UHGV virus genome: UHGV-0112973
Length of the DNA: 64,000 nucleotides
From: a virus
Reading direction: 5' to 3' (one strand)
The notes below the pieces were generated by a model, which worked only from the letters and a program-made list of their open reading frames with translations, was not told where the DNA came from and did no database searches. Both the position numbers and the translations under genes were made by a program. Every line of letters begins with the position of its first letter. Positions within the stretch are counted from its first letter, which is position 1. Of this stretch, positions 5,398 through 51,556 are shown one piece after another.

Positions 5398-5405
5398 GAG
5401 GGCAT

Positions 5406-5912: not shown

Positions 5913-5928
5913 TTGCTCTAATAAATCT
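5912..5928 (+). promoter_or_regulatory. C1 operator-like site (ATTGCTCTAATAAATCT, 16/17)
   Basis: Near-consensus operator upstream of ORF 6107. Confidence 0.6.
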
Positions 5929-6106
5929 TGATTTTTAAAACAGGGAAAGTGAAAATAAAAACATGCCGCAAGGCGCGGCATGTATCCAATCAATCACAGG
6001 AGCTGAAAATATGAACACGGCATTCAAAATCATTATGGCCGCGATCTATTTCTGGCTGTTCTCTATCACTTTTGGCGGCATCGTCGCGCATGGGTAAGGG
6101 GGATGC

Positions 6107-6685: not shown

Positions 6686-6768
6686 ACCGTGAGTATGCAT
6701 CAAATCGTCAGTTTTTCAGGTGGACGAGCATCGGCCTGTCTCGTTCATCTGTTCGAAGAGGTAGTGGC

Positions 6769-7926: not shown

Positions 7927-7927
7927 T

Positions 7928-8137
7928 ATGGCTATTGCCGCAAGTTACACCATGCATCTCTATTGTGACTGCCGCCAGTGTACGGAAGGTGTATATCCAG
8001 TGCCAGACTTCGGTGAGTATATCGGTACGTCATGGTCTGGTTGTGCAAAAGAGGCGCGCAAGGATGGCTGGCGAATAAGCAAAGACAAAACGCGTGCTTT
8101 TGCGCCCGGGCATAAAGTTTTGAGGATTAACAAATGA
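7928..8137 (+). CDS. small Cys-containing hypothetical protein
   Basis: ATG after AAGGAGAG RBS; about 69 aa; stop overlaps next gene start. Confidence 0.3.
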   Translation: MAIAASYTMHLYCDCRQCTEGVYPVPDFGEYIGTSWSGCAKEARKDGWRISKDKTRAFAPGHKVLRINK

Positions 8138-8976
8138 CCACTATTACCAAAGAGCGACTGCTGACAATCAAGCAGTGGCGCGAAACATACGGACCTGGTA
8201 GCAACGTTGTACTGCCAGCAGAAGAAGCGGAAGAACTGGCACGGATTGCTCTGGCAGCGCTGGAAGCTGAACCTGTTCTGTATCAGTCCTGCACTCGCCC
8301 CACTTGGAATAGCGGTGTTCCGTGGACGGAATGGAAAGAACGTAGTCGTGAGGGCTACGAAAACGATTTGCGCTTTACAGACACGCCTGACCATGCCGGT
8401 TGGATAAACAAATGCCGAAAACTATATACCACTCCGCCAGTTCCTGTAATACAGGCTGATGTCGCGCAGGCAATTGAAAAACTCAAACGGAAATTAGTGG
8501 AATGCAATCGCTATAACTACTGCGCAGATGCAGTTAAGGGCGTTGAGTATGCCTGCCACGCTGCCATGCTTCAGGGTAGCCAACCTGTAAGCCAAACTTA
8601 CAAGTTTCCAGTTAATACACCTTGCCAGGATGCGCCAGCCCATATCTGGCTGCAAACAGCTGGAGTATGGCCAGAAGATGGCGAGTTAAGCGAATTAACG
8701 TGGTGCAGCCACAATCAGCACCATGATGACACGCTATATGTTCGAGCTGACCTTGTGAATGGCAACTATCCGGTAACTCCGGATGGTTGGATAAGCTGTA
8801 GTGAGCGAATGCCCGCTCAAGATGATTGGATTTTAATTTATTCAAAGCACGGTGAGTATATGGCAGGACAGGTGCAAGGGGAATACGTGGAGTTGAGCGA
8901 CGGCACTTTATCGTGGTTAGGGAACGCCTTGTTCTGGATGCTGCTACCAGAACCTCCCCAGGAGGCAGGTCAATGA
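8134..8976 (+). CDS. DUF551 domain protein
   Basis: 280 aa; C-terminal ...WISCSERMP...FWMLLPEPP matches the DUF551 hallmark (W..LPEPP). Confidence 0.5.
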   Translation: MTTITKERLLTIKQWRETYGPGSNVVLPAEEAEELARIALAALEAEPVLYQSCTRPTWNSGVPWTEWKERSREGYENDLRFTDTPDHAGWINKCRKLYTTPPVPVIQADVAQAIEKLKRKLVECNRYNYCADAVKGVEYACHAAMLQGSQPVSQTYKFPVNTPCQDAPAHIWLQTAGVWPEDGELSELTWCSHNQHHDDTLYVRADLVNGNYPVTPDGWISCSERMPAQDDWILIYSKHGEYMAGQVQGEYVELSDGTLSWLGNALFWMLLPEPPQEAGQ

Positions 8977-10145: not shown

Positions 10146-10786
10146 CTACTCTAACGACAGCATACTTACAGCAATTGGTATTTTTTGCAGGCGAGGCTAC
10201 TTGTCATCCTGACGCAAACTATTTATTGGAATTTGAGAGGTTAGCGTCACCCGGTATCGTTCTGGAACTGGCCCAACAGGTGCTGGCCTTAAGACAAAAA
10301 GAGCAACATGAAAGTAATACGTGTAGATTGAACTTTGAGCAGTGGCTGGAACAGCAACGCGGAAAAATCGATGTGGACTGTGGTTGTGTGTCTACTGAAA
10401 CATTCATGCACTGGCTGCGGGTAGCTTACGAGGCTGGCAACTATCCGGATATTCCGGATAGTTCGGTGCCAGGGCCAGGAAAGGGCGTCACCGGTGAACG
10501 TATCCGCATTAAGCCGCATGTTTATCGCGAACTGGTTAACCGTCTCCACGATACAGCGATCAAGTGTGCTGGCACCCAGCAATTACGAGAAAGAATTAGC
10601 CGTGTTTTGGGCGACGTTATTAAGCCAGACCATCATAAACAAGCCGAGAAAAGTGGCCTGGAAAGGTGTCACCTTGAGGCGGCATTAAACATTAACCCGG
10701 GGCATACGCTTGGCATTATTGATGCACTATTGGTTCATAAGATGGCCAGGGCTTTATTGCCGCTGGTAGGGGGCAATGACAACTAG
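10127..10786 (+). CDS. hypothetical protein
   Basis: 219 aa; overlaps end of previous gene; no recognised domain. Confidence 0.35.
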   Translation: MAQKEMTTLTTAYLQQLVFFAGEATCHPDANYLLEFERLASPGIVLELAQQVLALRQKEQHESNTCRLNFEQWLEQQRGKIDVDCGCVSTETFMHWLRVAYEAGNYPDIPDSSVPGPGKGVTGERIRIKPHVYRELVNRLHDTAIKCAGTQQLRERISRVLGDVIKPDHHKQAEKSGLERCHLEAALNINPGHTLGIIDALLVHKMARALLPLVGGNDN

Positions 10787-10870
10787 GAAAAAATCGCATT
10801 ACTGGTGGCAAAGCCATAACTACTGATACAATATTTCTAGGTTAAAGATCTGGCATTAGGTAGAGATAGC

Positions 10871-11335
10871 ATGTTTCTTCATATCAATCCCGATTGGGCA
10901 TCAGCTATTGCGGCATTTGGGTCAGCAATAGCTGCTTTTATTAGTTTGCGCACAAGTAAAAATCTTGGATTATTCGATAAGGAAAAATTTTATAGTGAAG
11001 CATTGATAAACTTTGCTGATAGGGCAAATAAAATAGCAACAGGAAAAGCTGGATCAGACTGGGATGTTAATGACGCAAGTAATATAATTCTTTCACTAAA
11101 TGCCGCAAAAGAAACTATTGAAAGTGCGCCAAAACCTATTCGAGAGAAACTAAAACAATATTACAAACATAATCTTTGCCATGAGATCATAACTGAATTA
11201 GAGGCTCACTCTCCCCCAGATTCAGTAATTGTAAGAGAACCATCAGAGTATGAAGGCAAGATCATGGGATTGTGGGATGAGATTAAAATATTTCTGGGTT
11301 ATACAGTGGTATCAGAAGCAGACCTTGAAGATTAA
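10871..11335 (+). CDS. hypothetical protein with N-terminal TM segment
   Basis: 154 aa; N-terminal WASAIAAFGSAIAAFISL hydrophobic helix; directly upstream of phd-doc. Confidence 0.35.
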   Translation: MFLHINPDWASAIAAFGSAIAAFISLRTSKNLGLFDKEKFYSEALINFADRANKIATGKAGSDWDVNDASNIILSLNAAKETIESAPKPIREKLKQYYKHNLCHEIITELEAHSPPDSVIVREPSEYEGKIMGLWDEIKIFLGYTVVSEADLED

Positions 11336-11479
11336 AGTTTGGTGTGACCACATCATTTCATCAATGATGCCCGAAGTGGGGAGTTTGACGATTGTCCGGT
11401 GATTTAAGCTGCAAAGTGCTGGTGCTTTATGCTTGTGAAGTTTATAATTGTGTACACATAACGAGTACACGAGGTGTTT

Positions 11480-15156: not shown

Positions 15157-16640
15157 TGGCCAGAAGTTGCGTAACGGATCCACGTTGGCGCGAGCTGGTG
15201 GCGCTATATCGTTATGACTGGATTGCTGCCGCTGATGTTTTGTTCGGCAAAACACCTACCTGGCAGCAGGATCTGATTATTGAGTCTGTGCAGGAACAGG
15301 GTAGCAAGACATCTGTTTCGTCTGGTCACGGTACCGGGAAATCAGACATGACTTCTATCATGATCATGTTGTTCATAATCATGTATCCAGGTGCCCGTGC
15401 CATTATCGTTGCGAACAAAATTCAGCAGGTAATGACCGGTATATTCAAGTACATCAAGATAAACTGGGCTACTGCCACCAGCCGTTTCCCATGGCTTGCT
15501 GATTATTTTGTTCTGACAGAAACCGCTTTCTATGAGATTACTGGTAAAGGTGTATGGACTGTAGTACCGAAGGGCTTTCGTCTGGGAAGTGAAGAAGCTC
15601 TCGCCGGTGAACACGCAGATCATCTTCTGTATATTATCGATGAAGCCTCCGGTGTCAGTGATAGAGCTTTCGGTATCATCACCGGTGCTCTTACCGGACA
15701 GGATAACCGCATCTTATTGCTGTCACAGCCTACACGCCCAAGCGGCTATTTCTACGATACACACCATAAACTGGCCAAGCGTCCTGGTAACCCTGATGGC
15801 GTTTATACGGCGATCACGCTTAACAGTGAGGAATCACCGTTGGTAACGCCAGCATTTATCAAAATGAAGCTGGCGGAGTACGGCGGGCGTGATAACCCTA
15901 TGTACATGATTAAGGTACGCGGCCTATTCCCTAAATCACAGGATGGCTTCCTTCTTGGACGTGATGAGGTTGAACGTGCAACGCGGCGGAAAGTCAAGAT
16001 TGCCAAAGGATGGGGCTGGCTTGCATGTGTGGACGTTGCTGGTGGTACGGGACGGGATAAGTCCGTTATCAATATCATGATGGTGTCCGGCCAGCGAAAT
16101 AAACGCCGTGTAATCAACTATCGAATGCTGGAATACACAGACGTTACAGAAACGCAGCTTGCCGCCAAAATTTTCGCAGAATGTAATCCTGAGCGATTCC
16201 CCAATATCACCATAGCGATAGACGGCGATGGCCTGGGTAAAGCAACGGCGGATCTGATGTACGAGTATTATGGTATTACCGTACAGCGTATACGCTGGGG
16301 TAAAAAGATGCATAGCCGTGAAGATAAGAGCCTGTACTTTGATAAACGTGCTTATGCCAATGTTCAAGCCGCAGAGGCCGTAAAATCTGGTCGTATGAGA
16401 CTGGATAAGGGTAATGAAACTATTGAGGAAGCGTCGAAAATCCCTGTAGGGATTAACTCCGCAGGTCAATGGAAGGTGATGAGTAAGGAGGATATGAAGA
16501 AAAAACTCAACCTGCACTCACCAGACCATTGGGATACATATTGTTTCGCTATGCTGGCGGATTATGTTCCCCAGGATGAAGTGCTTAGCGTCGAAGACGA
16601 AGCGCAGGTTGATGAAGCTCTGGCATGGCTTAATGAATGA
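15156..16640 (+). CDS. pacB: terminase large subunit PacB
   Basis: 494 aa; ATGA-coupled to pacA; length and position as in P1. Confidence 0.85.
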
Positions 16641-16643
16641 ATA

Positions 16644-16660
16644 TTTGCTCTAATAAATTG
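16644..16660 (+). promoter_or_regulatory. C1 operator-like site (TTTGCTCTAATAAATTG)
   Basis: 15/17 consensus; immediately after pacB stop, ahead of the c4-like/icd/ant-like module. Confidence 0.6.
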
Positions 16661-16791
16661 TGTTTTTTAGCTACCGATGTTACATTGAACCTGACCTCTT
16701 GCGCCTTGTGGCATTTTCGGTTTATGCTTATCAGGCACCTCATTAAAACGGGTGCCGGGATTGGCCTCCCGCTTAAGTCTAAGGCGATACA

Positions 16792-16813
16792 GACGCCGCT
16801 CGCGTCTTTTTTT
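16792..16813 (+). terminator. terminator-like hairpin (GACGCCGCTCGCGTC + T7)
   Basis: Short GC stem followed by TTTTTTT in the leader of the icd/ant-like module. Confidence 0.35.
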
Positions 16814-16829
16814 GTATCGGCGTACACGC

Positions 16830-16930
16830 ACACCTCTACAATGGTGGGCTGTATGGGGCTACCTTCGGGTAGGCTGGTTACCTTGGACGCCAGTAAGGCC
16901 AACTCCGTACAGTCCACCGCCAGCAAGATT
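16830..16930 (+). ncRNA. c4-like antisense RNA candidate (copy 1)
   Basis: Block ATGGTGGGCTGTATGGGGCTACCTTCGGGTAGGCTGG alignable to copy at 61064 with compensatory stem changes around a TTCG loop. Confidence 0.3.
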
Positions 16931-16978
16931 GGTCTCTTCTGCGGTGGTTACATACCAACGTCTAAGGAGGCTGCCAAT

Positions 16979-17200
16979 ATGGCTACTATCCCTACCCCAA
17001 CTCATCCTGAATTTATCTGGCGCTTTTACTCCTGCCAAAAACGTCACTATCACTTCGTTATTGCACCGACAGAAGATGAGGCACGTTCTCAGCTTCCTGA
17101 CGCCCCATGTATTTTCTCTGCCCGTTTTTCCACTGATTCACGCAATTCTCTCAGTTACTGGTGCCTCCCTGTTAACGCTTCTGCTCAGGAGGGACTATGA
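16979..17200 (+). CDS. Icd-like small protein (copy 1)
   Basis: 73 aa after AAGGAGG RBS; about 70 percent identical to the icd-like ORF at 61193; ATGA overlap with ant-like gene. Confidence 0.55.
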   Translation: MATIPTPTHPEFIWRFYSCQKRHYHFVIAPTEDEARSQLPDAPCIFSARFSTDSRNSLSYWCLPVNASAQEGL

Positions 17201-18309
17201 GAACATCGTTAGTTACCCGTGAAGAGATGATCGAGGCAATTGAACAGCACACTGCCTGTATCAGTACCAGGGATATACCTGGCGTTATTGCCAACTACTT
17301 CATGATCACCAAACAACTTTACCGGAGAAAGGACAAACACGCGGTTCACCGCATTCTGCTAACCGATATCCGTGAATACCTGCTCGAACAGGGTCATCTA
17401 AATTACGCAACCGTCGCAGCCGAAGCACGCAAGGAGGCACACAGAATGAAAGCAACTAACGTTAAATCAGAAAAAATTTATGCACCTTCAGTTCAGGAAT
17501 CGGAACTGGTGGTTGTTCAGAATCAGCCGGATGAAATTCCCGTTCTGGAATGGCAGGGAGTACGTGTCGTGACAACCGAAACTCTTGCTAGAGGGTATGG
17601 GGTCGATGAAGCCAATATTCGCAACAATTTGTCTCGCAACCTTGACCGCTTTGAAGAAGGTAAGCATTACTTTCTTCTAACTGGTTTAAAATTAAGAGAA
17701 TTTAAGAACAGAGTAACCGGAAGTTACTCTGTTGGTAAGAACGCCAGAAGCCTTACACTCTGGACAGAGCGCGGCGCTGCACGCATGTCTAAGATCGTGG
17801 ACACAAATGAAGCATGGGCATTCTTTGAAAAACTGGAAGACAGCTACTTCCGGCAAAAAGAACAGCAACCGGTTGCAATCCCCCAAACATTACCAGAAGC
17901 CCTACGCCTGGCTGCCGAACTGGCTGAACAAAAGCAGCTTCTGGAACAGAAAGCCCACCAGCTAAATCAGCAGCTGGTGGCCGCCGCTCCTAAAGTCGAT
18001 TTTGCCGACCGGGTATCAGTAGCTAAAGGGATCCTGATTGGGAATTTTGCAAAGGTTGTTGGACTTAAGCAAAACGCGCTGTTTGCCTGGTTACGGGAGA
18101 ACGGCATCCTGATAGCGTCCGGTGGACGTAAAAATGTGCCGTTCCAGCAGTACATCAATGCGGGGTATTTCACGGTGAAAGAAGTGGTGCTGGATGATGA
18201 AGATGGCTACCAGATACGGTTGACGCCTCAATTAACGGGTAAAGGCCAGCAGTGGTTGACGCGTAAACTGCTCGATGCTGGCTTGTTAAAACCGGTGGCG
18301 GCTGAATAA
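17197..18309 (+). CDS. antirepressor-like protein (Ant/KilA-C family, copy 1)
   Basis: 370 aa; N-terminus and C-terminal about 135 aa closely match the Ant at 61411 and KilA at 62619; different central domain. Confidence 0.65.
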   Translation: MRTSLVTREEMIEAIEQHTACISTRDIPGVIANYFMITKQLYRRKDKHAVHRILLTDIREYLLEQGHLNYATVAAEARKEAHRMKATNVKSEKIYAPSVQESELVVVQNQPDEIPVLEWQGVRVVTTETLARGYGVDEANIRNNLSRNLDRFEEGKHYFLLTGLKLREFKNRVTGSYSVGKNARSLTLWTERGAARMSKIVDTNEAWAFFEKLEDSYFRQKEQQPVAIPQTLPEALRLAAELAEQKQLLEQKAHQLNQQLVAAAPKVDFADRVSVAKGILIGNFAKVVGLKQNALFAWLRENGILIASGGRKNVPFQQYINAGYFTVKEVVLDDEDGYQIRLTPQLTGKGQQWLTRKLLDAGLLKPVAAE

Positions 18310-18341
18310 TGGAAGAATGCCCGGTTGATGCCGGGCATAAT

Positions 18342-19193
18342 TTATTGCGCGCTTTCGGGGTTGTCGTTTACTGGCTGCCCCTTCTTGGTTTTACGGCTGC
18401 GCGTAACTGATGCGGCTGATTTGACCTTTTTCTCTTCGCGAGTGATGGCAATTTGTTTTTTTACATTTTCAATATCTGCCAGGCGATATATTTTTGCCTG
18501 CGGCCAGCGGTCGCAGATGATCGGTTCTATAGAGTCATAAAGGCTAAATTTTGCTTTTTCGAATTCACCGTTGATGATGATTCCATCACGGAGAGTTTCA
18601 TCGCAGATAAACACGCCACACAGCGGTACATGGTAACTAACTGATTTACCATCATTGTAGTTAGGGCTACTGGAGATGTAGTGGACGCGCAGCATTGTTT
18701 CGCTAAAGCCGTGTACACGCATACGGAATTTTTCATCCTCCGGGTACTGCCTCATTAGCTCTTTTGTTGCTTCCAGGTTCTCTATGTATTTCGCACTGTG
18801 CTCATTGATCCCCGCGCTTTTTTGGATGCGAATGTCCTTATCAATCAGATGAATAATGCGGCCAGCGGTCATGTTGACGCTGTTCACAGCTTCTGTCTGA
18901 TAAGTTGTAACCTTGCGCACACCGCGAAGGATGTTAGGCACTGGATATAAAATAGTCTTTGGGATATTGAGGTCTGGGTACTGTTCCAGTTCCCGCGCCA
19001 TTAAAGTCCATTTATCAATTTCAGCCTGAATGCTGTCAGTTTCTTTGAACGGTAGAACGACAACCGGGCGTACAGGACGACCGTCGCTGGCTGTATCAAC
19101 GTGTTGGGCGCGTGCAACAGCTTTTTTTAGAAAGAGATCCCTGAAGCTGACGAACTCCTGGTACAGTTGTTCGCCGTAGACATAATTTATCAT
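18342..19193 (-). CDS. c1: C1 repressor of lysis
   Basis: 283 aa MINYVYGEQLYQEFVSFRDLFLKKAVARAQ... recognised as P1 C1; position next to coi and loxP. Confidence 0.9.
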   Translation of the reverse strand: MINYVYGEQLYQEFVSFRDLFLKKAVARAQHVDTASDGRPVRPVVVLPFKETDSIQAEIDKWTLMARELEQYPDLNIPKTILYPVPNILRGVRKVTTYQTEAVNSVNMTAGRIIHLIDKDIRIQKSAGINEHSAKYIENLEATKELMRQYPEDEKFRMRVHGFSETMLRVHYISSSPNYNDGKSVSYHVPLCGVFICDETLRDGIIINGEFEKAKFSLYDSIEPIICDRWPQAKIYRLADIENVKKQIAITREEKKVKSAASVTRSRKTKKGQPVNDNPESAQ

Positions 19194-22737: not shown

Positions 22738-23379
22738 ATGGATAAGAAAATATGCGTTGTTTCGATGAGCGTCGGCAAACCGGCGTCAATGACTGCTGCA
22801 TGGATCAATAACGAGCTGATAATGGCTGAGCGGACCAGCTACCCTGAACGCCGCCGCGATATGGAACTCCAGCTGCTGCGCGAATTGCGAGAAAAAGAGG
22901 AAAAGGGTTTTATCGTGCTGGTGGAAGAGGAAAACAGCTTTATTACTGGTCGAGTTGGCCAGCGTGTAAGGTTGCGCGATCCCTTCATGAACGGCAGGCC
23001 GGTACTGATTGAAGCAATGCAGATTTACAAGGAGCTGGAACGCCAGAAAGCGATCAAGTTACCGCGCAAGGAATCCGGCAAATACATCCTCCACCAAAGC
23101 ATCTTCGATTCCGAACACGATAAAAAAGGCGATGAATTTTTCAACATCAACTGGAGCGAAATAACGACAGAGCATGTTCTGACGTTACTATGTTGCTTTG
23201 CGACGGAATACAACAACGTTGCCAGCGCCGACTACATCAGGGCAATGGCTGGAGAAGTTGAAGCCCGCCAGGAACCATCGTTACTAAGTCCACTTATTAA
23301 CATAATTCTGGGTACCCAGACACTGGAACAAAAAAAAGTGCCGAAAGGGGTATTAACAGGCAAGCATAATTATTTCTAA
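22738..23379 (+). CDS. hypothetical protein (position of P1 mat)
   Basis: 213 aa from ATG after AGGGGG; track ORF extends to 22591; no recognised domain. Confidence 0.35.
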   Translation: MDKKICVVSMSVGKPASMTAAWINNELIMAERTSYPERRRDMELQLLRELREKEEKGFIVLVEEENSFITGRVGQRVRLRDPFMNGRPVLIEAMQIYKELERQKAIKLPRKESGKYILHQSIFDSEHDKKGDEFFNINWSEITTEHVLTLLCCFATEYNNVASADYIRAMAGEVEARQEPSLLSPLINIILGTQTLEQKKVPKGVLTGKHNYF

Positions 23380-23577
23380 TAATTTATAGTGGGGACTTTT
23401 GATGGTGTAAAACCCCATGAATTATTATTTTTTAGTTTTTTGATTCTATTTTTTTTGCATTACCCGTCATAAAAATGAGCTTGCTTACATAATAGAAAAT
23501 TATTTTATCAACACTATTACAACAAACGATTATCACTGATAACATGAGTCCTTTGAAAACAAAGGACTCACCATACT

Positions 23578-24186
23578 ATGTCTAATACCTCGGCAAATGA
23601 AATTGTACCGCACTTACCGCTAATTTTCGAAAATGAAGCTAATGGGATTCTTCAGGATCTGGCCTATACTCCATCGCTTATGGGGTTGATGATGTTCCCG
23701 ACAGAAGAGGAGCTGAAAGCAGCGAGAAGCTACATAATTAACGTTTTTGAAGAGTGTTACCGAGCCGGTCATTTGCGCATTATGGGCTTTACTAATGAAG
23801 AAAACTTGTTCGGATACGCCTTAATCTTCGGACATCCATCGGGAAATTTTCCGTTGTACTGTCATAAAATATATGTATATGAGCAATATCGTGGTAATGG
23901 ACTTGGAAGTAATATACTGGCAGAAATACTTGCATTTCCAAATGAGGTCGCTTTGATTTGCCAGTCTGATTTGGTTCCTTTTTATGAATCAGCCGGAATG
24001 CACTTTAAAGGAAATTACACCACTCCATCAGTCGCCAATTTCAAAAAAACTCGCGGCATGTATGAGGGGCTTTGTTTGATGAGCACTGAAAAAAATGCAA
24101 ACTCTAATGGTGTACCTATATTCATGCTGAACGATAACGATATTGATAACATCATACAGGCTATCGCATCATCGGCACCACGATAA
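23578..24186 (+). CDS. GNAT-family N-acetyltransferase
   Basis: 202 aa; acetyl-CoA-binding-like segment YVYEQYRGNGLGSNILAEIL; AT-rich flanks. Confidence 0.55.
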   Translation: MSNTSANEIVPHLPLIFENEANGILQDLAYTPSLMGLMMFPTEEELKAARSYIINVFEECYRAGHLRIMGFTNEENLFGYALIFGHPSGNFPLYCHKIYVYEQYRGNGLGSNILAEILAFPNEVALICQSDLVPFYESAGMHFKGNYTTPSVANFKKTRGMYEGLCLMSTEKNANSNGVPIFMLNDNDIDNIIQAIASSAPR

Positions 24187-24268
24187 TATTAATAATTCAT
24201 CTCGCCGCAGGAACTACAAACCAGTTGATTGTTTGTGAAACGCCCGGTGCAAACCGGGCCAACAAAAC

Positions 24269-30900: not shown

Positions 30901-31755
30901 CAGGGGGATTTTCTCAGCCATCTCTGCCGGATGTTTGCGCATCAGCACCACATCAACAACTGTACTGGTCCCGTTTGCGTCAAAAGTACCGGTAGGCAAG
31001 CGGTGGGCACCAAGAAATTCAGCTTTCCGTGATAGGCGCAGGCGTAACCGCTTCATGTTTGAACCTGAAACAATGGACGGCGGCACAATCACGCACATGA
31101 ATCCGCCTGGCTTTATCTTGTCCAGCATGCGGAGCATGAAGTAAGAACCCATGTCCGTTTCTTCTGCGTAAGGCTTATCGATGTTGCGTGTGTTATCACG
31201 ACCACCGAACGGAACGTTACCCACAACATGGTCGAATGAATCGTTAGGCGTGCTTACAGCCAGTTGTTCGAACGGAGAAATCTGTACGCTGTCTTCCGGG
31301 TGCAACAGCTGGTTTATACGACCGGAAACACTGCTGATCTCAGTCGCGGTCATCACCGTACCAACCGGTTTTGTCTCATTAAAAACGCCGGTTCCCGCCG
31401 ATGGTTCCAGAGTGTTACCTACGTCCGCGCCGTAGAGCTTCATGATCTCCCAGACACCTTCAGCGATCGGCTTTGGTGTGTAATATTCGGAGACGGACCC
31501 GCCAATGCCGCCTTCACCGGTGTACCCAGCCAGGATCTGGCGCTGTTCATCTGTCAGTGTCGCGCCGTCCACCAGCGAATTAAGCAAATCTATCGCCTTC
31601 TGATTCGCCTCACGGCGCAGTCGGTCATAGCTTTTGCCTTCCACCTTTTCCACGCCGTATTTAATCGGCGCTCGGTGAGATGTTATTGCCCTAATGTATT
31701 TCAATATTTCGCTGACACTTGAACAGCGAAACACCCCCATAGATAGCTTGTTCAT
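24988..31755 (-). CDS. darB: DarB-like antirestriction protein (methyltransferase/helicase)
   Basis: 2255 aa, the length recalled for P1 DarB; helicase motifs IADEGHNY and LLTATPVVN; N-terminal NVPFGG region. Confidence 0.85.
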   Translation of the reverse strand: MNKLSMGVFRCSSVSEILKYIRAITSHRAPIKYGVEKVEGKSYDRLRREANQKAIDLLNSLVDGATLTDEQRQILAGYTGEGGIGGSVSEYYTPKPIAEGVWEIMKLYGADVGNTLEPSAGTGVFNETKPVGTVMTATEISSVSGRINQLLHPEDSVQISPFEQLAVSTPNDSFDHVVGNVPFGGRDNTRNIDKPYAEETDMGSYFMLRMLDKIKPGGFMCVIVPPSIVSGSNMKRLRLRLSRKAEFLGAHRLPTGTFDANGTSTVVDVVLMRKHPAEMAEKIPLVDESTLESANVLWPTFISGKWFEKDGRRFVHGTQEKGFQGRIEVRADGQIDNQALKAKLIHRFESRIDWSLLDMAEPSPTADVVGEGEMRLINGVWQKYAGGRWIEADAGKELKIDAASYGADSWEALQRNLTTTEGRLGMTFTQMANVRDKYTTSISDDMVQLVDWINSQPEKYRERLYRGAMIGRMLIEYQDMKAAGHSAEQIEQQRLSLVSRLQAEIDRFGNPGRGPIAKLSGSGARAWFAFRGAIKLDGTISDELTGKLVTHDSSASYDSTSYQDTLRYLYSDLTRDPIQLDDFRLAFTGELPASDEELLNLLASTPGIAVSPYGGIVPFARATSGDINEIVAPKQEFLATLPDGPVKNNVLNQLAAIEEKRIKTPAENIRFKLNSRWFDRSVILEFLQENGYPDLRYVQSVQLEGDEMVSDTYHGGDGLFVGHRYGVVQRKDKETGEIRYEWDRKSGENATGFPAQLEKYLNGARIGGKDSATANGYREQMALLEDQFNKWIKTHDRYDELVAKYNDVFNSNIPYEHSGDPLGLKGLSGKRQPFDYQNSEVRRLSEDGRGILGFGTGLGKTTTALALEAFNYENGRSTRTAYVVPKSVLENWYYEAKEFLSEEAFSNYLFVGLDVLMDGDQIRQVQVLDENGKPVLGTDGTPVMRDALKLADEATITARMNAIPHSNYRAVVFTKEQYARIPLRDDTVDEHAQDMLYDFVAAGRVASAMDSDSHRKEAARRRVLSEYSDTGTEKAEKYPYFEDMGFDSVIADEGHNYRNSYKNGREASQLAYLPTSAVAQSARDMAIKNAYLIKKNGGRGPVLLTATPVVNTPIDAYNMLSHVLPKEYWQNMGIYGPDDFVKFFGKTRLETVQKISGEVEEKMALVGFENLDALRGIFHRWVTLKTAEDVKDTVEIPELDEHQQDAPLTEEQLAAYEELRQQAEAAAKANNGVTTSVNEDGVIEHEKARPIFSIIRDMDRVCTDMDLYYRRITYRFLPEYADAVQQLADSLPKQATSEDDDSDDSITQQSQYSLIDKGEFIQLQVPEAFEQEVNKRLARFGIDEQTVTHPVTPKYAKLIATLKEFFPEGKQIIFTDEKTQHQKLKRIICNALNLEPSKVGILNAQTVAEAGKTGKKLKAVKPPKELPDEPTDAQIAKYNEQMALYDAYIAQQNEMSLGGLEKIAADFQEGRTPIIICNKKAEVGINLHRGTTDIHHLTLPWTPASIAQRNGRGARVGSNRASVRVHYYCGKGSFDEYRLKTLKRKAGWISDILRSDKSEMENADANDMIEMQMYTAKDDGERLAMMQVQMDKAKAAKRARQKEQATIDLQNYIKAQHAAGEDVEVLTAELERSKAELEKTTAEVAKFKQAVMAKAADNADWKARWGSVHHTDRMLLAQYRASLKSAIQRKANISQAISRYEKLLNRTQKAATDIKRLRPLVEDALNKGILDVDPDLVNHASEFLVIGDRSWRVGQYYDCAGDIVRIKSLDFDSQRADVEIIFTFKGTKSGNWDVKTLDKQVDVTPDEDAVMQKISGGVSIAGINDIVSCDDFYRFQQRGMIKITDSYGVQTTESGYSIDFVGTYTDPLKHAVYPDRRDGALKSSIAKWVLGMMSEGNNRQIRSAEAFLVELFGSNYGDVIASYGDTLSPEAIQEKIADAIARMPEKTSQGATRNGDSELEVTNAIFGTNEFRASDYEITTAQFGTIGIYSNKAEIKQAMDAASARIAAEREANLNHAVAALTQSWVTAIREAATTGKITPAIADVVNDGSKFMDAYQMDAVKLPSAYGQLSYRMTYNLVSMFSDLAILGLVDLNEVTPELLSMRKNHVEILQRINTVLAGRTDEEKQADADRINLALGNITEEEIAARNEKQEELSSIQGDATSIAQSLGLNYRVSTADLKMMYAPKFAAGEVFGLQEASGMKGVLFRAKDAIKAKFGARWLPAKAKNSDFPGNWWIIETKHNVADVLAVIQQYA

Positions 31756-43940: not shown

Positions 43941-44370
43941 CTGACACATCCTGTGCGAGATTTATTACGTAACTTCTGCGGATTTGCTGAGTAACAGGGA
44001 AAATCCGATACAACGGGTTAATGAACGAGTCGCCATGCGTAACCATGATGTTGAAATGCCACAGTCGCTCTCCTTTACCCATATATTCAGTGGGTATGTA
44101 CAACCATTCACTGTTTTCGCCCTGTTCAGCCGACGTCAGACAACGTTGTTCACCTTCAATCACTGTCGTCGGCTTCTGAACATCGCGGATCCAATATCTG
44201 ACCGTTGCGCCGCGCAAAAACGGGAATTTAGACCGGTACTTGAACGGCACCCGGATGAAACCCGGTTTAATTTCCACATCACCAAGTTCTAAATGCGTGA
44301 TGTCCTTGCGTTTTAGCAAATAGCGATCGGCTAAGGCTAACGCAAGAACGCATACACCCCAGCCAATCAT
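43927..44370 (-). CDS. lydB: LydB-like antiholin
   Basis: 147 aa; coupled to the lydA-like holin gene. Confidence 0.45.
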   Translation of the reverse strand: MIGWGVCVLALALADRYLLKRKDITHLELGDVEIKPGFIRVPFKYRSKFPFLRGATVRYWIRDVQKPTTVIEGEQRCLTSAEQGENSEWLYIPTEYMGKGERLWHFNIMVTHGDSFINPLYRIFPVTQQIRRSYVINLAQDVSDDEK

Positions 44371-44696
44371 TTCCCGCCTCCCTTTTTCACCAAACTTGTA
44401 AGAACATTCAGAATGCTATCGATATTCACTCGTTTCATCCCTGAAATCACCTCATGACCGTTATTGCTGGCTATCGTTACCATTAAGTACGTAATTGATA
44501 ACTCCCAGCCCTCGTGTTGCCCCAATAGGTACGCCACCGCGCCAGCTGTCACTGCAACAAAGATCTCCGTAACCAATCCCAACAAATTGCCAGACTGGCG
44601 ACCGTCTCGGACATCCATCAGGAACGTGCCTATCCCACCAATTACTGAAAGCAGGAGCGCAATAGCAACTGGAGCTAATTCCTGTGTGTCAAGCAC
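44367..44696 (-). CDS. lydA: LydA-like holin
   Basis: 109 aa with hydrophobic helices (LAPVAIALLLSVIGGIGTFL..., FVAVTAGAVAYLLG). Confidence 0.5.
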   Translation of the reverse strand: MLDTQELAPVAIALLLSVIGGIGTFLMDVRDGRQSGNLLGLVTEIFVAVTAGAVAYLLGQHEGWELSITYLMVTIASNNGHEVISGMKRVNIDSILNVLTSLVKKGGGK

Positions 44697-44763
44697 AAGT
44701 TCCCTCCTACGTTGTCAGGAGGTAATGGTATGCAAAGTAACTTCTCAACCGGTCATTTGTTGC

Positions 44764-45045
44764 TTAAGAGGCATTTCTATTGAGGTACGAATCGATAATC
44801 CTTTGTAACTTTTCAAGAATGAGCCTGTTATTGATGCTGCAAATAATAGTCACGCAATTCTGAAGACTTTCATCCATACCCTTATATTCCGCGAAATACA
44901 TGCCTATAAAGCCTGCAAGTACGGCAGCAATACACTCGGCCATCAATTGCCTGCATGACGCTTCGTAACGTTTTTCACGAACCCCATTCAGAAACGAATG
45001 CACCCCGCCAAGGATGGAGAGGAGCATTATTGTGAAATCACACAT
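44764..45045 (-). CDS. holin-like small membrane protein
   Basis: 93 aa with two hydrophobic segments; upstream of lydA. Confidence 0.35.
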   Translation of the reverse strand: MCDFTIMLLSILGGVHSFLNGVREKRYEASCRQLMAECIAAVLAGFIGMYFAEYKGMDESLQNCVTIICSINNRLILEKLQRIIDSYLNRNAS

Positions 45046-45172
45046 AACTATTTCCTTAATAGTGAATTAAATATCATTGGGAAACGGTATGTACTTTGTG
45101 ATTTCCACACATACTGGTTTTTGTTAATTAAAATCCGCAGCTTGCTATAAATAACGATAGTGAGCAGAAAAT

Positions 45173-45307
45173 ATGCTAATAGGCTATGTACGCGTATCAA
45201 CAAATGAACAAAACACTGCTTTACAACGAAACGCTCTTGAAAGCGCAGGATGTGAGCTAATTTTTGAGGACAAGGCGAGTGGAAAAAAGGCTGAACGACC
45301 AGAGTGA
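45173..45307 (+). pseudogene. cin: truncated serine invertase gene (cin remnant, 44 codons)
   Basis: [44 protein letters not shown]-stop matches the N-terminus of Cin/Gin/Hin invertases including catalytic Ser. Confidence 0.75.
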
Positions 45308-45480
45308 AAAAGGCTTTTGATAGGTAAACTCTGGTCGTATGAAAGTTAAATTTGCGTGGGTGCAGCATGCGCTCACTCTTGAGGCATGAACGGTAATCAT
45401 CTGATAACTTGTAGCTCGATTATCCGGACGCACTGGAACCAGTCGATGCTTCCAGCGATCCAGATATTTCATTAAATGGA

Positions 45481-45891
45481 CTACGCCTCCGGGAACGCTG
45501 GCCAATTGACATCTGGTGCAGTGCTGGTATCCGTTGCGGTCACCGCATCGATATAATCCAGCACAGCGTTAAGACGGGTGGTTTCAGCCTGCGTAAGATT
45601 CCGCCCGGCCTGTAATTTCAGTTGAATAAGACTAATGGAAGCCATTGCGGTATCAATCAGCGACTGTTTTTTCTGTTCAGCGTCAGCTACCAGTTCATCA
45701 TGAGAACGTTCCGGAGTGGGTGGCGCAGTAAATCCCCCGTCTGAATACACCCAGCCGATTCCGGGCTGCTCACTGATATCAGAAATATTAATGAGCTGCT
45801 GATTATCCGGCACAGTGAATTCATCCTCGCCATCCCAGACAATGACATTCACAACCATCCCATTTTCAATAACTGCATATGACGCATTCAT
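45481..45891 (-). CDS. U: tail fibre assembly protein (U/Tfa-like)
   Basis: ATG overlapping S stop (TAATG); C-terminal ...VDWPAFPEA typical of Tfa chaperones. Confidence 0.7.
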   Translation of the reverse strand: MNASYAVIENGMVVNVIVWDGEDEFTVPDNQQLINISDISEQPGIGWVYSDGGFTAPPTPERSHDELVADAEQKKQSLIDTAMASISLIQLKLQAGRNLTQAETTRLNAVLDYIDAVTATDTSTAPDVNWPAFPEA

Positions 45892-48800
45892 TATGCAAAC
45901 TCCTCGATAATACAAACCCCATCAGCACCTTTCCCGCCCGTCATACTGGTTCCGCTATAACCTGCATCGTATGCACCACCTCCGCCTGAACCAAATGCCC
46001 TGCCTCTAACGCCACCGCCAGCGCCTGCACGTCCACCGCCTCCCCAGTACGATGCACCGCCTTCACCGCTGACACTGATATTCCCGGACTGACCGTCGCC
46101 TCCATCTCCACCAGTGATGCGGATATCGCCAATATTCGGTACGCCTCCGTTACCGCCGTTTGTGTTTGTGACTCCTACTTTTCCGCCGCCTTCACCACCA
46201 GGGGCTATTACCGATCCGAACGAGCTATCACCGCCCTTGAGGCCGTTCGTCGCACCAACGCCGCCGGCCCCACCTGCGCCGATAGTGACAGGATAACTAT
46301 TCTGTGTCGGGGTCAGTATGGTGATTACTGTCCCTCCGGCCCCACCGCCAGCACCGAAAAACGTTTCGTTACTGGATATAGCCTGGCAGCCACCCCCTCC
46401 GCCACCGCCGCCCGTTATTGTGACCCTGATCCGTTTTGTTCCTGGGGTTGGGGTATACGTACCTGATGAAGTGAAAACCTGGGTATTCACCAAACGCCCA
46501 ACATATCCGCTTGAATCGCTCAGGCCAAGGTTAGCAGCAGTTAAAGTAATATTTGCAGAACCATCAAACTTAACACCGTTGATAGTGCGTGCAGTCTGTA
46601 GTTTCGTTGCGGTTGCGGCATTACCGGTAGTGCTCTGATTACCTGCTTTATTCACGCCCGGCAGGTCGATATTGGCACTACCATCAAATGACACCCCGCC
46701 GATTGTGCGTACTGTTTGCAGTTTTGTTGCAGTTGCAGCATTACCGTTCAAACTACCATTGATGCCGCCAGTAACATTGAGTCCATTACCGATCGTAACA
46801 GTACCATTGGCATTGTTAATGATAAGCGGCCTTAAATTATTATAGGTTCCCAGGCTGTTACCCGAATTGGTCAACATGAAATATGTGTTTGAACCATCGT
46901 TTCGGATAAAGAATCCGTAGTTTCCGTAGGCAATGCGCAGACCATTCGCCGATTTTGAAATGATCTCACCAGTAGCCGTTAAACCGCCGTTGAGATTTCC
47001 TCCGGTTATTGGTAATGCGCCGACATCCGTGGCGGTCGGTTTAATGTGCGAACTGTAAATTACATATACAGTTCCATCTGTCAGGCCTGTTGGTTTATTC
47101 GCTGTATAAGATGGTGATGTATGAATCGTTACGCTGGCGTTACTGGTATAATCCCACTGAATATTAACACGTGTGGTGTAATTACCTATTTCAACATAAA
47201 CATCATAGGTATCACCGGATGTATTCACCCATGCAAAATTAGTAAATCCAACCGATGTCCGTCGCCATAACGCACCAGTAAGACCTTTTGGATTCCCATT
47301 TCCCGCACGAAGAACAAGTTCAGATATACCAGCCTGCATAGGGGAGTTAACATTATATCCAGAACCACCAATCAGGCTTATGTAAACCACGGAACTGGAC
47401 TGTGGCATGGTTACAGTTGCCAGCTTGAACCATCCAGTACCACCACTAAAAGACATTGTTGTTGAGTTGATCGTGCCTATAGACCTTGGAGTTAGCTCAA
47501 TGTTTTTAGAACCGTCAAACAACACCCCATTTATAGTTCTAGCGGTTTGTAACTTGGTCGCTGTCGCTGCATTACCGGATGTATTCTGATTACCCGCAAC
47601 GTTAACACCAGGTAAATTAATATTCGCAGTACCATCAAAGCTAACTCCGCCGATAGTTCTTGCCGTCTGTAGTTTTGTAGCAGTTGCTGCATTGCCAGTT
47701 GTATTCTGATTGCCAGTGGCATTCACACCAGGAATGGAGTCCCTTGATGTATATACCTGCGCCCACGCTGACCATGCCGCATCAGTGTGATCTCTTCGGG
47801 AGCGAATGAAAACCGGCGCATGTGCACCGCTCGTACCACTCCAGCCAATAAGCAACTCGCCCTCACCAGCAGCACTCGCACCTTTCATGTGCAATACGTT
47901 GCCATACGCGGTCGGGTAGCTATTGTTGTACGCCTCATACATCTGCAATCCAGTAGAAGCACCTTGTGTTGTATCGGTGAGCGCAGTAACACGCCCTCTG
48001 GACGCAATTGTTGGTATCGAAATGTTCGCAGAACCATCAAACTTAACACCGTTGATTGTGCGTGCTGTTTGCAGTTTTGTTGCAGTTGCGGCATTACCGG
48101 TAGTGCTCTGATTACCTGCTGTATTCACACCTGGCAGGTCGATATTGGCACTACCATCGAATGACACTCCGCCTATTGTGCGTGCTGTTTGCAGTTTTGT
48201 TGCAGTTGCAGCATTACCGGTAGTGCTCTGATTACCTGCTTTATTCACGCCCGGCAGGTCGATATTGGCACTACCATCGAACGACACTCCGCCGATTGTG
48301 CGTGCTGTTTGCAGTTTTGTGGCGGTGGATGCATTACCTGTCAAAGATCCACTAAGAGCCACGGCACTAAGAGACTTAACACTTACATCCTGACCCCATC
48401 CGGAAACAACAACCTGACTCCACGCTGCCCAGCTTCCATTAACAACAAAGCGAACGTATATACGTTTTGTGTCGTTGCTGATCAGCGTTTGCATGTTCGC
48501 ATAATCCGAAGCAGAAACTTTGCGAGTCGACTCTACACGGAGCAAAAAGTTACCGTTTACGCCGTCAGGCTTGTTGGTGATATTTGCACCACCTCCAAAG
48601 GTTGGACAATAATAATATTTAATTGCCCCGACATCTGAGCTGATGGTCAGGTTGTTAAGATCAACCGTCTGGCCGCCAATTTTTTCCGGCTCGATGGCTC
48701 CTGCTATCCCGGCACTGAATGTAGCAGCAGCTGAAAACGCTGTCTTACCTTTGAAAGTCTGTTGAGAACTCCAGGTATTAGCTGTGCTCAACAGGGGGAT

Positions 48801-50195
48801 CTTTTCGCCGCTGGTTCCGATTTCTCTTAAACCAAGGTATTGGATAACAGCCAGTGTGCTTGTTTTAGCCAGGATATCGCGACCGACTGACGTTAAATCA
48901 GTCTGGGAAACAGTGTCTGTACCGGTAAAGTACGGCAATTTATTTGCGCCTGTCGCAAGACCAGCAAGCGCGGTTAAAGTTGCATCCAGAGGCTGTTTGC
49001 CTGCCAGCGCATTTGTCATTGTTGTCGCAAAGTTCGGGTCATTGCCCAGTGCTGCTGCAAGCTCATTCAGGGTATCAAGAGCTTCAGGTGATGAGCCGAC
49101 CAATGCAGAGATAGCAGCTCTTACATAAGCGGTCGTAGCAATCTGCGTGTTATTCGTACCCTGTGCAGCGGTAGGCGCAGTAGGTATTCCCGTTAATGCA
49201 GGACTTGCTAAAGGAGCTTTAAGAGCCAGAGCATTGTTGATAGTTGTGCTGAAATTCGGGTCGTTATTGATCGCAGCAGCTATTTCTTTAAGCGTATCCA
49301 GAGTGCCAGGTGCACCGTTGATAAGTGCCGTTATAGCTGCCTTAACAAAGGCTGTATTTGCGATCTGCGTGCTGTTTGTACCTTGCGCTGCCGTCGGCGC
49401 GGTTGGCGTTCCTGTCAGACTCGGGCTTTCTATTGGCGCTTTGGTATCAGCCAGCTCTTTTACAGACTTAACGGCTTTAGGGGTAGCCGCCATTGTTTCG
49501 CTGTCGCTGTTAGTTGCGCTACTGAGCTGAACTAATCCCTTTTGTGTTGTGCTTGCATCCTGCGCCGTATACTTGCTTTTAGCCAGATCGTAGGCTTTTT
49601 TAACCGCCAGCGAACTTGCAGCGACATCACTTCTGGTACTGGTTACAGAGTCGGAAATTTCAATGCCTATCGCGAGATCGATGCGGTCGGATACATCTAT
49701 CATTTCCTTAGTAATAGCAGATACGCCAGCAGGGATATTCACCGTACAAACAAGCAGTTCTCCATCTCCTAACTGATATGAATCGGTATAGGTTCTGGCA
49801 ACAAATTCAGCCGCATGAATATGTGACGCGGTATTAACCTGATAAGAATCTTCTCCAAGGAGGTATCTTCCCTTCAGCACAATTGCATATTTCTTACCTG
49901 CGCTAAGTGCAAGAGAAATATCCTTACGCTGCTGAATAGTTACCTGGTAGAATTCACCAATATTCACTGACGCCGCGCCAGCGGTTTTATCACCATCCAC
50001 TGAGGTGATTAACAGGTTCATCCCACCGCCAGGCTTAGGAAAAAAACCGGCATAAAATCCAGGGTCAACAATTCCCCTGAATTTTCGGTTTAGCGCGGCT
50101 GACAGATATGGTTCGTGGTATTGCACATCAGCCACCAGAGCCAACGACTCGGGTGATGGGTAAGTAACCGATGTGACAACTGTAACGTCATTCAT
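45891..50195 (-). CDS. S: tail fibre protein S (long, repeat-containing, Gly-rich tip)
   Basis: About 1434 aa from MNDVTVVTSVTYPSPESLALV; T4-like fibre repeats; 7 copies of a 39-aa repeat; Gly-rich C-terminal 170 aa. Confidence 0.8.
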   Translation of the reverse strand: MNDVTVVTSVTYPSPESLALVADVQYHEPYLSAALNRKFRGIVDPGFYAGFFPKPGGGMNLLITSVDGDKTAGAASVNIGEFYQVTIQQRKDISLALSAGKKYAIVLKGRYLLGEDSYQVNTASHIHAAEFVARTYTDSYQLGDGELLVCTVNIPAGVSAITKEMIDVSDRIDLAIGIEISDSVTSTRSDVAASSLAVKKAYDLAKSKYTAQDASTTQKGLVQLSSATNSDSETMAATPKAVKSVKELADTKAPIESPSLTGTPTAPTAAQGTNSTQIANTAFVKAAITALINGAPGTLDTLKEIAAAINNDPNFSTTINNALALKAPLASPALTGIPTAPTAAQGTNNTQIATTAYVRAAISALVGSSPEALDTLNELAAALGNDPNFATTMTNALAGKQPLDATLTALAGLATGANKLPYFTGTDTVSQTDLTSVGRDILAKTSTLAVIQYLGLREIGTSGEKIPLLSTANTWSSQQTFKGKTAFSAAATFSAGIAGAIEPEKIGGQTVDLNNLTISSDVGAIKYYYCPTFGGGANITNKPDGVNGNFLLRVESTRKVSASDYANMQTLISNDTKRIYVRFVVNGSWAAWSQVVVSGWGQDVSVKSLSAVALSGSLTGNASTATKLQTARTIGGVSFDGSANIDLPGVNKAGNQSTTGNAATATKLQTARTIGGVSFDGSANIDLPGVNTAGNQSTTGNAATATKLQTARTINGVKFDGSANISIPTIASRGRVTALTDTTQGASTGLQMYEAYNNSYPTAYGNVLHMKGASAAGEGELLIGWSGTSGAHAPVFIRSRRDHTDAAWSAWAQVYTSRDSIPGVNATGNQNTTGNAATATKLQTARTIGGVSFDGTANINLPGVNVAGNQNTSGNAATATKLQTARTINGVLFDGSKNIELTPRSIGTINSTTMSFSGGTGWFKLATVTMPQSSSVVYISLIGGSGYNVNSPMQAGISELVLRAGNGNPKGLTGALWRRTSVGFTNFAWVNTSGDTYDVYVEIGNYTTRVNIQWDYTSNASVTIHTSPSYTANKPTGLTDGTVYVIYSSHIKPTATDVGALPITGGNLNGGLTATGEIISKSANGLRIAYGNYGFFIRNDGSNTYFMLTNSGNSLGTYNNLRPLIINNANGTVTIGNGLNVTGGINGSLNGNAATATKLQTVRTIGGVSFDGSANIDLPGVNKAGNQSTTGNAATATKLQTARTINGVKFDGSANITLTAANLGLSDSSGYVGRLVNTQVFTSSGTYTPTPGTKRIRVTITGGGGGGGGCQAISSNETFFGAGGGAGGTVITILTPTQNSYPVTIGAGGAGGVGATNGLKGGDSSFGSVIAPGGEGGGKVGVTNTNGGNGGVPNIGDIRITGGDGGDGQSGNISVSGEGGASYWGGGGRAGAGGGVRGRAFGSGGGGAYDAGYSGTSMTGGKGADGVCIIEEFA
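46550..48340 (-). repeat. in-frame coding repeats within S (7 copies of about 117 bp in 3 clusters)
   Basis: Near-identical DNA units encoding GNAATATKLQTARTIGGVSFDGSANIDLPGVN... Confidence 0.8.
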
Positions 50196-50206
50196 CAAGC
50201 ATATCC

Positions 50207-50641
50207 TTATGCTGTAGTCGTGTTTATGGCCATAACTGCGGTATATGTTTTGCCCACATACAGCGAGTCTTCCTGGACACAAATAATGGCGATTGGCTTG
50301 TTCTCGTTATCCAGAACAACCAGAGTGTTGAATGGGTAGTTTTTCCCTTTCTGCAACTGGCTTTGATCAAGGTCCATTCGGACAGTAATTATCCCGCCTG
50401 AGTAGGTTGGGACGAGGTTGATGGTGCAAAATTTACTGGTCAGTTCTGCCAGCTCGAAAGCCTTTGGCAGTTCTCCAATCTCATAAGTGCCATCTCCTTT
50501 CTTAGTAACCAGTGAACTGGTACCGAAAACGGCCTTGCTGATTAAAAATCGAGAGCCTTTGTTAATGGACGATTCAGCGCGCCGCTGATAGTAATAGTCC
50601 AACAACTGACTCTTATAGAGGTTTGTTGAGACGTCAGACAT
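50207..50641 (-). CDS. tail fibre-associated structural protein (R-like)
   Basis: 144 aa immediately upstream of and overlapping the S start. Confidence 0.45.
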   Translation of the reverse strand: MSDVSTNLYKSQLLDYYYQRRAESSINKGSRFLISKAVFGTSSLVTKKGDGTYEIGELPKAFELAELTSKFCTINLVPTYSGGIITVRMDLDQSQLQKGKNYPFNTLVVLDNENKPIAIICVQEDSLYVGKTYTAVMAINTTTA

Positions 50642-50719
50642 GATTTTCCCTAATCAATGTTGTGAAGCCTCATTGTAAGAGAAGTAACTTGTCACCCCGC
50701 CCTGCGGACGGGGTGATTG

Positions 50720-51556
50720 TCAGGCGTCGCTATCCAGCAACAAATCATCTGCGCGTGTGCGATCAAACGTAGGTGTCGCTTTCACAATAGTGCCACCAGG
50801 CGTTGCGGTGATCGGGGCGCTAATCGACGTAACTCCAGTAAGCGAAGTTGTATCCGAAGTTTCAAACCAGCAGTACGCTTTTTCGGTATCAGAAATCTCG
50901 TTCAAAGTGATCATGTCGGCCTGTTCATTCACAACAACCGACAAATAGAGCGTAAGCCCATCAAACACTATATGCAGTGGCAGTAGAGGCTTTACGAACT
51001 GATTAAACTTTCTGAGAATTTCTTCTGTAATTGCGGACTGATCTATCGTGCCAGTAATACCCATTGTCCGGGCCAGGTCGTTTATGGGAATACTGATCAT
51101 CCCTCTGGAAGTCAGAAACATCTCACCGAATGTGCCGCCGGTAGTTTCCAGTGTGCTTTCTGGTATTAGAACTGTGCCATAGGGATGACGTTCAAGGTCC
51201 ACCGGTGCATATATCGGATCCCATAAAACAGAAATACCATTAAATTCGCGGTAAATTGTCTGGTTTATAGGGCGTTCAGTCCCCTTAAAGTGAATCTCAT
51301 CAAGCCGCTGTTGTAACAACATCGGAACGGAAGATGAGTTTGAGGTTCTGATAGTAAAGAACTGGCCAAGTTCATTTGTCCTGGTCTCCAGATCCTCCTT
51401 GCTCATGGAAAAAATAGACTTCCGGTTGGTAATTCGCTCCAACCATGGGTCAACAAAGGTGTCCATCATTGACTGAACCAAATCAGCCAATGATTTATAG
51501 AGCAATGACTTTTGCTTAGCTGATGTAAGCCGATTATTAAACCAGGAACGTTGCAT
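50720..51556 (-). CDS. baseplate/tail structural protein
   Basis: About 278 aa; ATG after GGAGGA; coupled (TGATG) to upstream baseplate gene. Confidence 0.4.
   Translation of the reverse strand: MQRSWFNNRLTSAKQKSLLYKSLADLVQSMMDTFVDPWLERITNRKSIFSMSKEDLETRTNELGQFFTIRTSNSSSVPMLLQQRLDEIHFKGTERPINQTIYREFNGISVLWDPIYAPVDLERHPYGTVLIPESTLETTGGTFGEMFLTSRGMISIPINDLARTMGITGTIDQSAITEEILRKFNQFVKPLLPLHIVFDGLTLYLSVVVNEQADMITLNEISDTEKAYCWFETSDTTSLTGVTSISAPITATPGGTIVKATPTFDRTRADDLLLDSDA

Follow-up and report, generated by a model that had tools for sequence, protein, structure and literature searches.

Between the holin-homologue gene and the tail-fibre genes of a viral genome lies an open reading frame of only 44 codons that begins as a serine invertase and then stops. 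This raises the question of what became of the host-range switch that an invertase in this position would operate, and of whether the fibre can still be changed. Phage P1 (AF234172) carries a cin/C-segment inversion system, which Iida and colleagues in 1982 and Hiestand-Nauer and Iida in 1983 are said to have described. The G segment of Mu, with its invertase gene gin, involves the same serine invertase family and the same alternative-tip logic, and the Mu switch still works. Fixed-fibre phages are common as well, an example being P2, whose H-G genes are naturally switch-less. We analysed a 64-kb stretch of DNA around the truncated reading frame, hereafter the window, together with complete plasmids related to it.

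Genomic setting

Gene order and high nucleotide identity to P1 identify the window as part of a P1-like phage-plasmid and place it among the Punavirus-type elements. The order ddrB-ddrA-darA-hdf-lydB-lydA-lydC-cin'-U-S agrees with that of P1, with U and S on the minus strand, and P1 is collinear with window positions 44700-45279 at 99.7% identity. The left neighbour of cin is, as in P1, the holin homologue lydC (44764-45045, minus strand), an ORF that is 99.3% identical to P1 lydC. A megablast search with positions 44900-45950 matched P1 at 98% (98-99%) over the lydC-cin part and recovered 475 PLSDB plasmids, nearly all of them non-mobilizable and derived from E. coli. The whole query was covered by 34 of these 475 plasmids, at identities of 91-99%.

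The window represents about two thirds of such a genome, and the remaining ~31 kb were checked by proxy in a complete relative, NZ_CP020522.1. This complete plasmid of 95,146 bp is collinear with the window, 100% identical to it across the junction described below, with ~99% identity over most of what the two have in common (~97-99%). Six window stretches (6162-6752, 7658-8934, 10146-11338, 16638-18343, 23318-24242 and 59351-60626) had no megablast alignment of at least 500 bp to NZ_CP020522.1 and are candidate variable or accessory regions.

The cin remnant and its upstream region

The cin' ORF (45173-45307, plus strand) starts with ATG and runs for 44 codons to a TGA. Its product corresponds to residues 1-43 of P1 Cin, the sole difference being G44E directly before the stop (43 of 44 residues match), and it includes the catalytic serine, Ser9, within the N-terminal catalytic motif (Ser9/10) of the invertases (MLIGYVRVS...). 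The Pfam Resolvase profile (PF00239) matches this product with an E-value of 3e-11, over profile positions 2-51 of 145 only. At the nucleotide level, positions 45040-45279 agree with P1 at 100% and without gaps, far above chance. Because of this DNA and protein identity to P1 and the Resolvase match, we regard 45173-45307 as a genuine fragment of cin and not a chance match. The remnant falls short of a full catalytic domain, which has ~135 aa and contains the E-helix dimer interface, and a tblastn search for the C-terminal helix-turn-helix (Cin residues 75-186) found no match at the locus or elsewhere in the window. With neither the rest of the catalytic domain nor the helix-turn-helix, the remnant is therefore a pseudogene and not a functional member of the invertase family. 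In NZ_CP020522.1, RefSeq (PGAP) annotates the same stretch as a 'recombinase family protein' that is incomplete and missing its C-terminus.

The region immediately upstream (45051-45164, plus strand) is likewise 100% identical to P1. Positions transferred by offset from the P1 annotation (AF234172) place the predicted promoters P2cin at 45051-45077 and P1cin at 45102-45134 and the cin ribosome-binding site at 45162-45164, all on the plus strand. A promoter and terminator scan of 44900-45700 returned a number of sites not above that of shuffled controls. The predicted recombinational enhancer sis of Fis-dependent C inversion (45191-45262, plus strand; 31678-31749 in the P1 annotation) lies inside the remnant, within the first 90 nt of cin, and is intact and 100% identical to its P1 counterpart. 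On the strength of this match, the retained sis element may still function as an enhancer.

Homology to cin continues past the first stop. A decayed continuation (45308-45377, plus strand, codons ~45-73) carries a 12-nt deletion and single-base indels, and can be traced to about 45377, which corresponds to nt 217, or codon ~73, of P1 cin. Relative to P1, the sequence past the first 107 nt of the gene has 21 substitutions, the 12-nt deletion, one 1-nt deletion and one 1-nt insertion. Two of the changes are nonsense: L45*, which ends the ORF, and W61*, which is a second stop. Decayed cin is about 70-79% identical to intact cin genes, and most lesions of 45308-45377 are common to five diverged relatives. 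We considered whether this part derives from another intact invertase allele and rejected the idea: no phage or plasmid invertase gene was closer than about 72-79%, and the substitutions mix synonymous, non-synonymous and nonsense changes. Among intact PLSDB invertase genes, none was closer than about 72% to the decayed part, and no intact ancestor with the cin allele of this remnant was found.

These results revise the first-pass annotation of this DNA in part. Its invertase N-terminus with a catalytic serine, followed by a stop, is confirmed, and so is its view that cin has been reduced to a remnant. The extent of 44 codons is too short: homology runs on for ~70 bp, and the pseudogene measures about 205 bp, not 135 bp. 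The 170 bp after the stop, held to contain no invertase continuation in any frame, in fact contain the decayed part of cin to about 45377 and the beginning of a second relic at 45406-45509. The alignment with P1 proposed there for mapping the deletion endpoints yields identity to 45279 and loss of homology by about 45377.

Between the two relics lies a putative deletion junction (45378-45405), about 27 nt with no assigned source. Local alignment of the junction against the intact sibling plasmid pSBF45b gave no convincing match for these positions. An 18-nt segment at 45393-45410 (TGATAACTTGTAGCTCGA) is kept here and absent in CP119005, CP099080, CP063718, CP083706 and pSvP1. As it is these other remnant-bearing lineages that lack it, a secondary small deletion at their junction is indicated.

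Tail-fibre genes and the inverted relic

The second relic (45406-45509, plus strand) is tfa'/U'-like. It corresponds to the 3'-terminal ~32 codons of a P2-type gene for tail-fibre assembly, in inverted orientation, and has an in-frame TAG and a frameshift. Its translation, NL*LDYPDALEPVDASSDPDI, compares with NLWLDYLDALELVDTSGAPDI in tfa' of a P2-like phage, and it is homologous to tfa' of P2-like phages and of some P1-like plasmids. The relic and the 3' end of U share 29 nt, the same overlap that intact convergent gene pairs show. Since the same relic lies directly downstream of an intact U' in pSBF45b, it must be older than the cin deletion.

U (45481-45891, minus strand) is an ORF of 136 aa for a tail-fibre assembly protein. 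Its ATG overlaps the stop codon of S (TAATG), it is 98% identical among relatives, and its product matches Pfam Caudo_TAP (E = 3e-22) over profile positions 25-131 of 131. RefSeq treats the U homologue of NZ_CP020522.1 as a partial pseudogene missing the N-terminus; pSBF45b, however, has an ORF of equal length, and U probably encodes an authentic, short assembly protein whose N-terminal part is of another kind.

S (45891-50195, minus strand) is an intact tail-fibre gene encoding 1434 aa, with a P1-type Sc part, a non-P1 variable part, a glycine-rich C-terminal tip and the Pfam domains Phage_fiber_2, Gp34_trimer and Gly_rich_2. It is 93-94% identical to P1 and pSBF45b from 48748 toward the 5' end of the gene (higher coordinates), in comparisons that ran to the ends of the loci at 50152 (P1) and 50371 (pSBF45b); below 48748, matches to either consist of scattered repeats only. 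The variable part contains a tandem repeat at 48054-48338 (120-nt unit, 2.4 copies, 92% matches), and dispersed repeat copies occur within 46548-48341, the repeats encoding the motif GNAATATKLQTARTIGGVSFDGSANIDLPGVN. The longest S ORF in pSBF45b has 1106 aa, a length that is counted from an upstream TTG and exceeds the probable protein by about 29 aa.

The stretch comprising U and the glycine-rich tip of S (45481-46532) is 93.6% identical to a tail-fibre module in NZ_CP081794.1 (locus positions 4990-6022), an unrelated 43.7-kb plasmid prophage with gp47/baseplate J-family and YmfQ baseplate genes. Modules for the fibre tip are thus exchanged between P1-like elements and others of the myovirus type.

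One crossover site and no invertase

An orphan cixR lies inside S at the Sc/Sv boundary (48825-48844, plus strand). It matches P1 cixR at 20 of 20 positions, where 0 such matches are expected by chance, and coincides with the boundary at which homology to P1 S ends; the site is exact in pSvP1, pSBF45b and P1 as well. Pattern searches for a cixL or quasi-cix partner in the window and in NZ_CP020522.1, allowing 3 and then 5 mismatches in 20, found cixR only, the sole partner-type match in the window being cixR itself on the opposite strand. Of the two inverted crossover sites of a working switch, cixL and cixR, only the latter is present.

The remaining parts of a switch were sought in the same way. 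A tblastn search with P1 Cin against the 64-kb window and NZ_CP020522.1 matched only the remnant, which leaves the fibre genes with no functional invertase beside them. No inverted repeat longer than 19 nt that might mark a hidden invertible segment occurs in 44000-51000, where only chance-sized pairs of 16-19 nt were found. No full Sv' or U' lies between the cin remnant and U (45481-45891), and in place of two opposed Sv/U sets the locus has a single S/U set and the 32-codon tfa' relic. Inversion is impossible because there is no recombinase and only one crossover site; judged from sequence, a tail fibre fixed in one orientation is well supported.

The first-pass annotation had likewise seen no inverted alternative tip (Sv'/U') between the remnant and U and had taken the fibre to be locked in one orientation. 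Both claims agree with the searches above, which found no invertase, one cix site and no long inverted repeat. The residual cix site that it suggested looking for in S exists, as the exact cixR, and no full-length invertase turned up elsewhere, in the window or in the complete relative, to unsettle its reading.

Comparison with related loci

The locus occupies the same position as in P1 (lydC, cin, ..., U, S). The sequence upstream of cin, the first 107 nt of the gene, the enhancer and cixR are identical to P1, and Sc is 93% identical. Unlike in P1, cin stops at codon 45 and cannot be recognised beyond about codon 73. The locus has no cixL, Sv' or U', its Sv and U belong to another type, S has a glycine-rich tip and 1434 aa, and inversion cannot take place.

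The undeleted state is represented by pSBF45b (NZ_CP067234.1), a P1-like IncY plasmid. It shares with the window the module of U and glycine-rich S (89% identity across 45427-46541), the tfa' relic and an identical cixR, but it keeps a complete 186-aa Cin, cixL, a P1-type Sv' and U'.

A different outcome is seen in CP098993.1, a P1-like plasmid in which the original cin is also a 5' remnant beside lydC. At 4320-5232 of its locus this remnant, which has a TAG at codon 9, precedes a full-length P2-type invertase of 190 aa that is encoded in the reverse direction and accompanied by Sv'/tfa'. Intact tfa' copies are found in CP098993.1 and in the invertase modules of the P2-like phage 500465-2, whereas only the relic is found here. 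Going by its gene content, CP098993.1 probably still switches, with cin replaced and switching not lost. It was rejected as an ancestor of the present locus: its cin endpoint at codon ~59 and its lack of the 12-nt deletion mark an independent event. Remodelling of the cin locus is thus recurrent.

Origin of the truncated locus

Since pSBF45b carries the same U/S module together with an intact cin-cixL-Sv'-U' region, a single deletion of ~2.5 kb is the simplest history. We consider it very probable that a single old deletion struck the host-range switch for the tail fibre in a P1-like phage-plasmid and that the locus is its scar; the event was presumably a deletion and not a replacement. Unlike in Mu or in P2 H-G, a switch would have existed here and then been lost.

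The ancestor would have resembled pSBF45b, with the order lydC, cin, cixL, Sv', U', short tfa' relic, U, Sv, cixR, Sc. From cin codon ~74 to the end of U', ~2.5 kb would have been lost by an illegitimate deletion that took cixL, Sv' and U' with it. It would have spared the promoter region of cin, its first ~73 codons with the internal enhancer, the older tfa' relic, U, S and one cixR. Each virion would then bear one fibre only, encoded by S with its glycine-rich tip and assembled with U, S and U presumably being expressed and sufficient. The cin remnant would have no function of its own, its 3' part would have decayed neutrally, and the 44-codon length of the ORF would reflect the chance position of the first nonsense change in this lineage. 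We also considered a deletion catalysed by Cin between two cix-type sites and set it aside: the hybrid cix site expected at the junction is absent, and the deletion was thus probably illegitimate. Two observations count against the deletion history: the ~27 nt at the junction were traced to no source, and the search for an intact ancestor with the remnant's own cin allele found none.

A foreign block made up of the tfa' relic, U and the glycine-rich Sv might instead have recombined into a P1-like genome, displacing cin, cixL, Sv' and U' in one step. The right crossover would have fallen in the conserved cixR/Sc region and the left, illegitimate one inside cin, and pSBF45b would have acquired the block independently behind its own U'. 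The mobility of the U/S tip module, evident from its copy in the unrelated prophage NZ_CP081794.1, speaks for such an exchange, as do the resemblance of the C-terminal part of U and of the tfa' relic to genes of P2-like phages and of phage SKA5 (Mu-type baseplate genes), the independent truncation of cin in CP098993 beside an imported, reversed P2-type invertase module, and the filler sequence at the junction. We nonetheless think a replacement unlikely, as it needs two acquisitions of the same relic-U-Sv block with the same left end where a deletion needs one event. Replacement is the less parsimonious of the two, and the fibre would end up locked under both. That the truncation is artificial, either a stop created by sequencing error, as the first-pass annotation had allowed, or an invertible region collapsed by the assembler, has a negligible chance of being correct. 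Invertible segments are often mis-assembled, and PGAP flags both the remnant and U as partial. However, about 2.5 kb are missing and not one base, several independent lesions are present in both relics, and at least 14 complete assemblies, made independently and from different hosts and countries, agree at 100% across the junction, with a diverged form in about 30 more.

Age and uneven decay of the scar

CP020522, CP119005, CP099080, CP063718, CP083706 and pSvP1 all have this junction together with the internal 12-nt deletion in cin, while frames and first-stop positions differ among the remnant-bearing lineages. Identity between lineages is about 85-87% for decayed cin and the relic, compared with 98% for U and 95-99% for lydC. 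A junction that is common to these lineages and yet has diverged since implies that the event is old and inherited. The faster divergence of decayed cin and the relic fits neutral decay of DNA that would have become non-functional after such an event.

Decay is uneven along the remnant. Over the first 107 nt there are 0 differences from P1, and identity among lineages is 96-98%, against 15-21 substitutions plus indels across lineages in the next ~110 nt. Even decay would be expected of a relic that is purely neutral, and the model therefore needs either recombination with intact plasmids or constraint. The few differences among lineages in the first 107 nt are almost all synonymous and fall at sites where intact alleles are also polymorphic (nt 9, 18, 60, 63 and 99). 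Their mosaic distribution points to homologous recombination with intact P1-like plasmids via the shared left flank, with selection on the promoter/enhancer or on the lydC upstream region as a weaker alternative explanation of the uneven decay.

Constraint might also mean that 5' cin (promoters, start codon, codons 1-36 and enhancer) is under selection for a new role, whether as a regulatory element for lydC, through antisense transcription into the convergent U-S operon or as a short peptide. The contrast between 0 differences from P1 in 107 nt and 21 substitutions plus 3 indels in the next 110 nt is what such a role would lead one to expect, and none of the 6 remnant-bearing sequences (the window, CP020522 and four diverged lineages) has a frameshift or stop in the first 107 nt. 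Against this, the 5' polymorphisms are the same as those of intact cin alleles and are mosaic across lineages, as recombination would give. The C-terminal end of the ORF varies: in CP119005 the frame shifts at about codon 39, and in pSvP1 the tail is longer. The independent CP098993 remnant has its TAG at codon 9. A fragment of 38-44 residues also has neither the dimerisation helix nor the DNA-binding domain of a serine invertase. A new role is, in our judgement, highly improbable. We give similarly little credence to the idea that the undecayed 5' part (45051-45279) and the perfect cixR are retained for a continuing function, either transcriptional control of lydC/U-S or as a docking point at which a trans-acting invertase from a co-resident prophage would capture fibre tips.

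Distribution and relevance

Seen as the scar of an old deletion, the locus is an ordinary pseudogene of a kind already known, with the remnant annotated as partial in RefSeq and one counterpart published. Venturini et al. (2019, Sci Rep 9:18861; PMC6906374) noted a 'partial invertase orf' in pSvP1 and inferred loss of the tail switch; according to these authors, none of their P1-like plasmids has a complete C segment, and the host-range switch has presumably been lost. Plasmid pSvP1 (NZ_MN510446.1) has the same cin'/tfa'-relic junction and internal cin deletion as the window. It differs in that its decayed part is about 85% identical, the 18-nt segment is absent and its ORF is a few codons longer, and it also has IS elements and an F-plasmid insertion elsewhere.

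In PLSDB, 44 plasmids have the decayed part at an identity of at least 80%, and another 213 records match it at 60-80%, nearly all of these, among the matches listed, being annotated recombinase genes. The wider importance of the locus is small. A sizeable P1-like subclade (44 of the 257 PLSDB plasmids with the homologous region), from E. coli of humans and livestock, appears to have given up the switch for a single fibre with a glycine-rich tip. This is relevant to host-range prediction for such elements, which include carriers of resistance or virulence genes. Annotations should record the 44-codon ORF as a pseudogene; the non-coding gap is accounted for by the tfa' relic and the orphan cixR.

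The junction was found in 16 of 5,426 complete RefSeq E. coli genomes. In one of the 16, NZ_CM148631.1, the identical junction lies at 4446528-4446758 of a 5.18-Mb chromosome record and not on a plasmid; either the P1-like element has integrated there or the assembler joined it to the chromosome.
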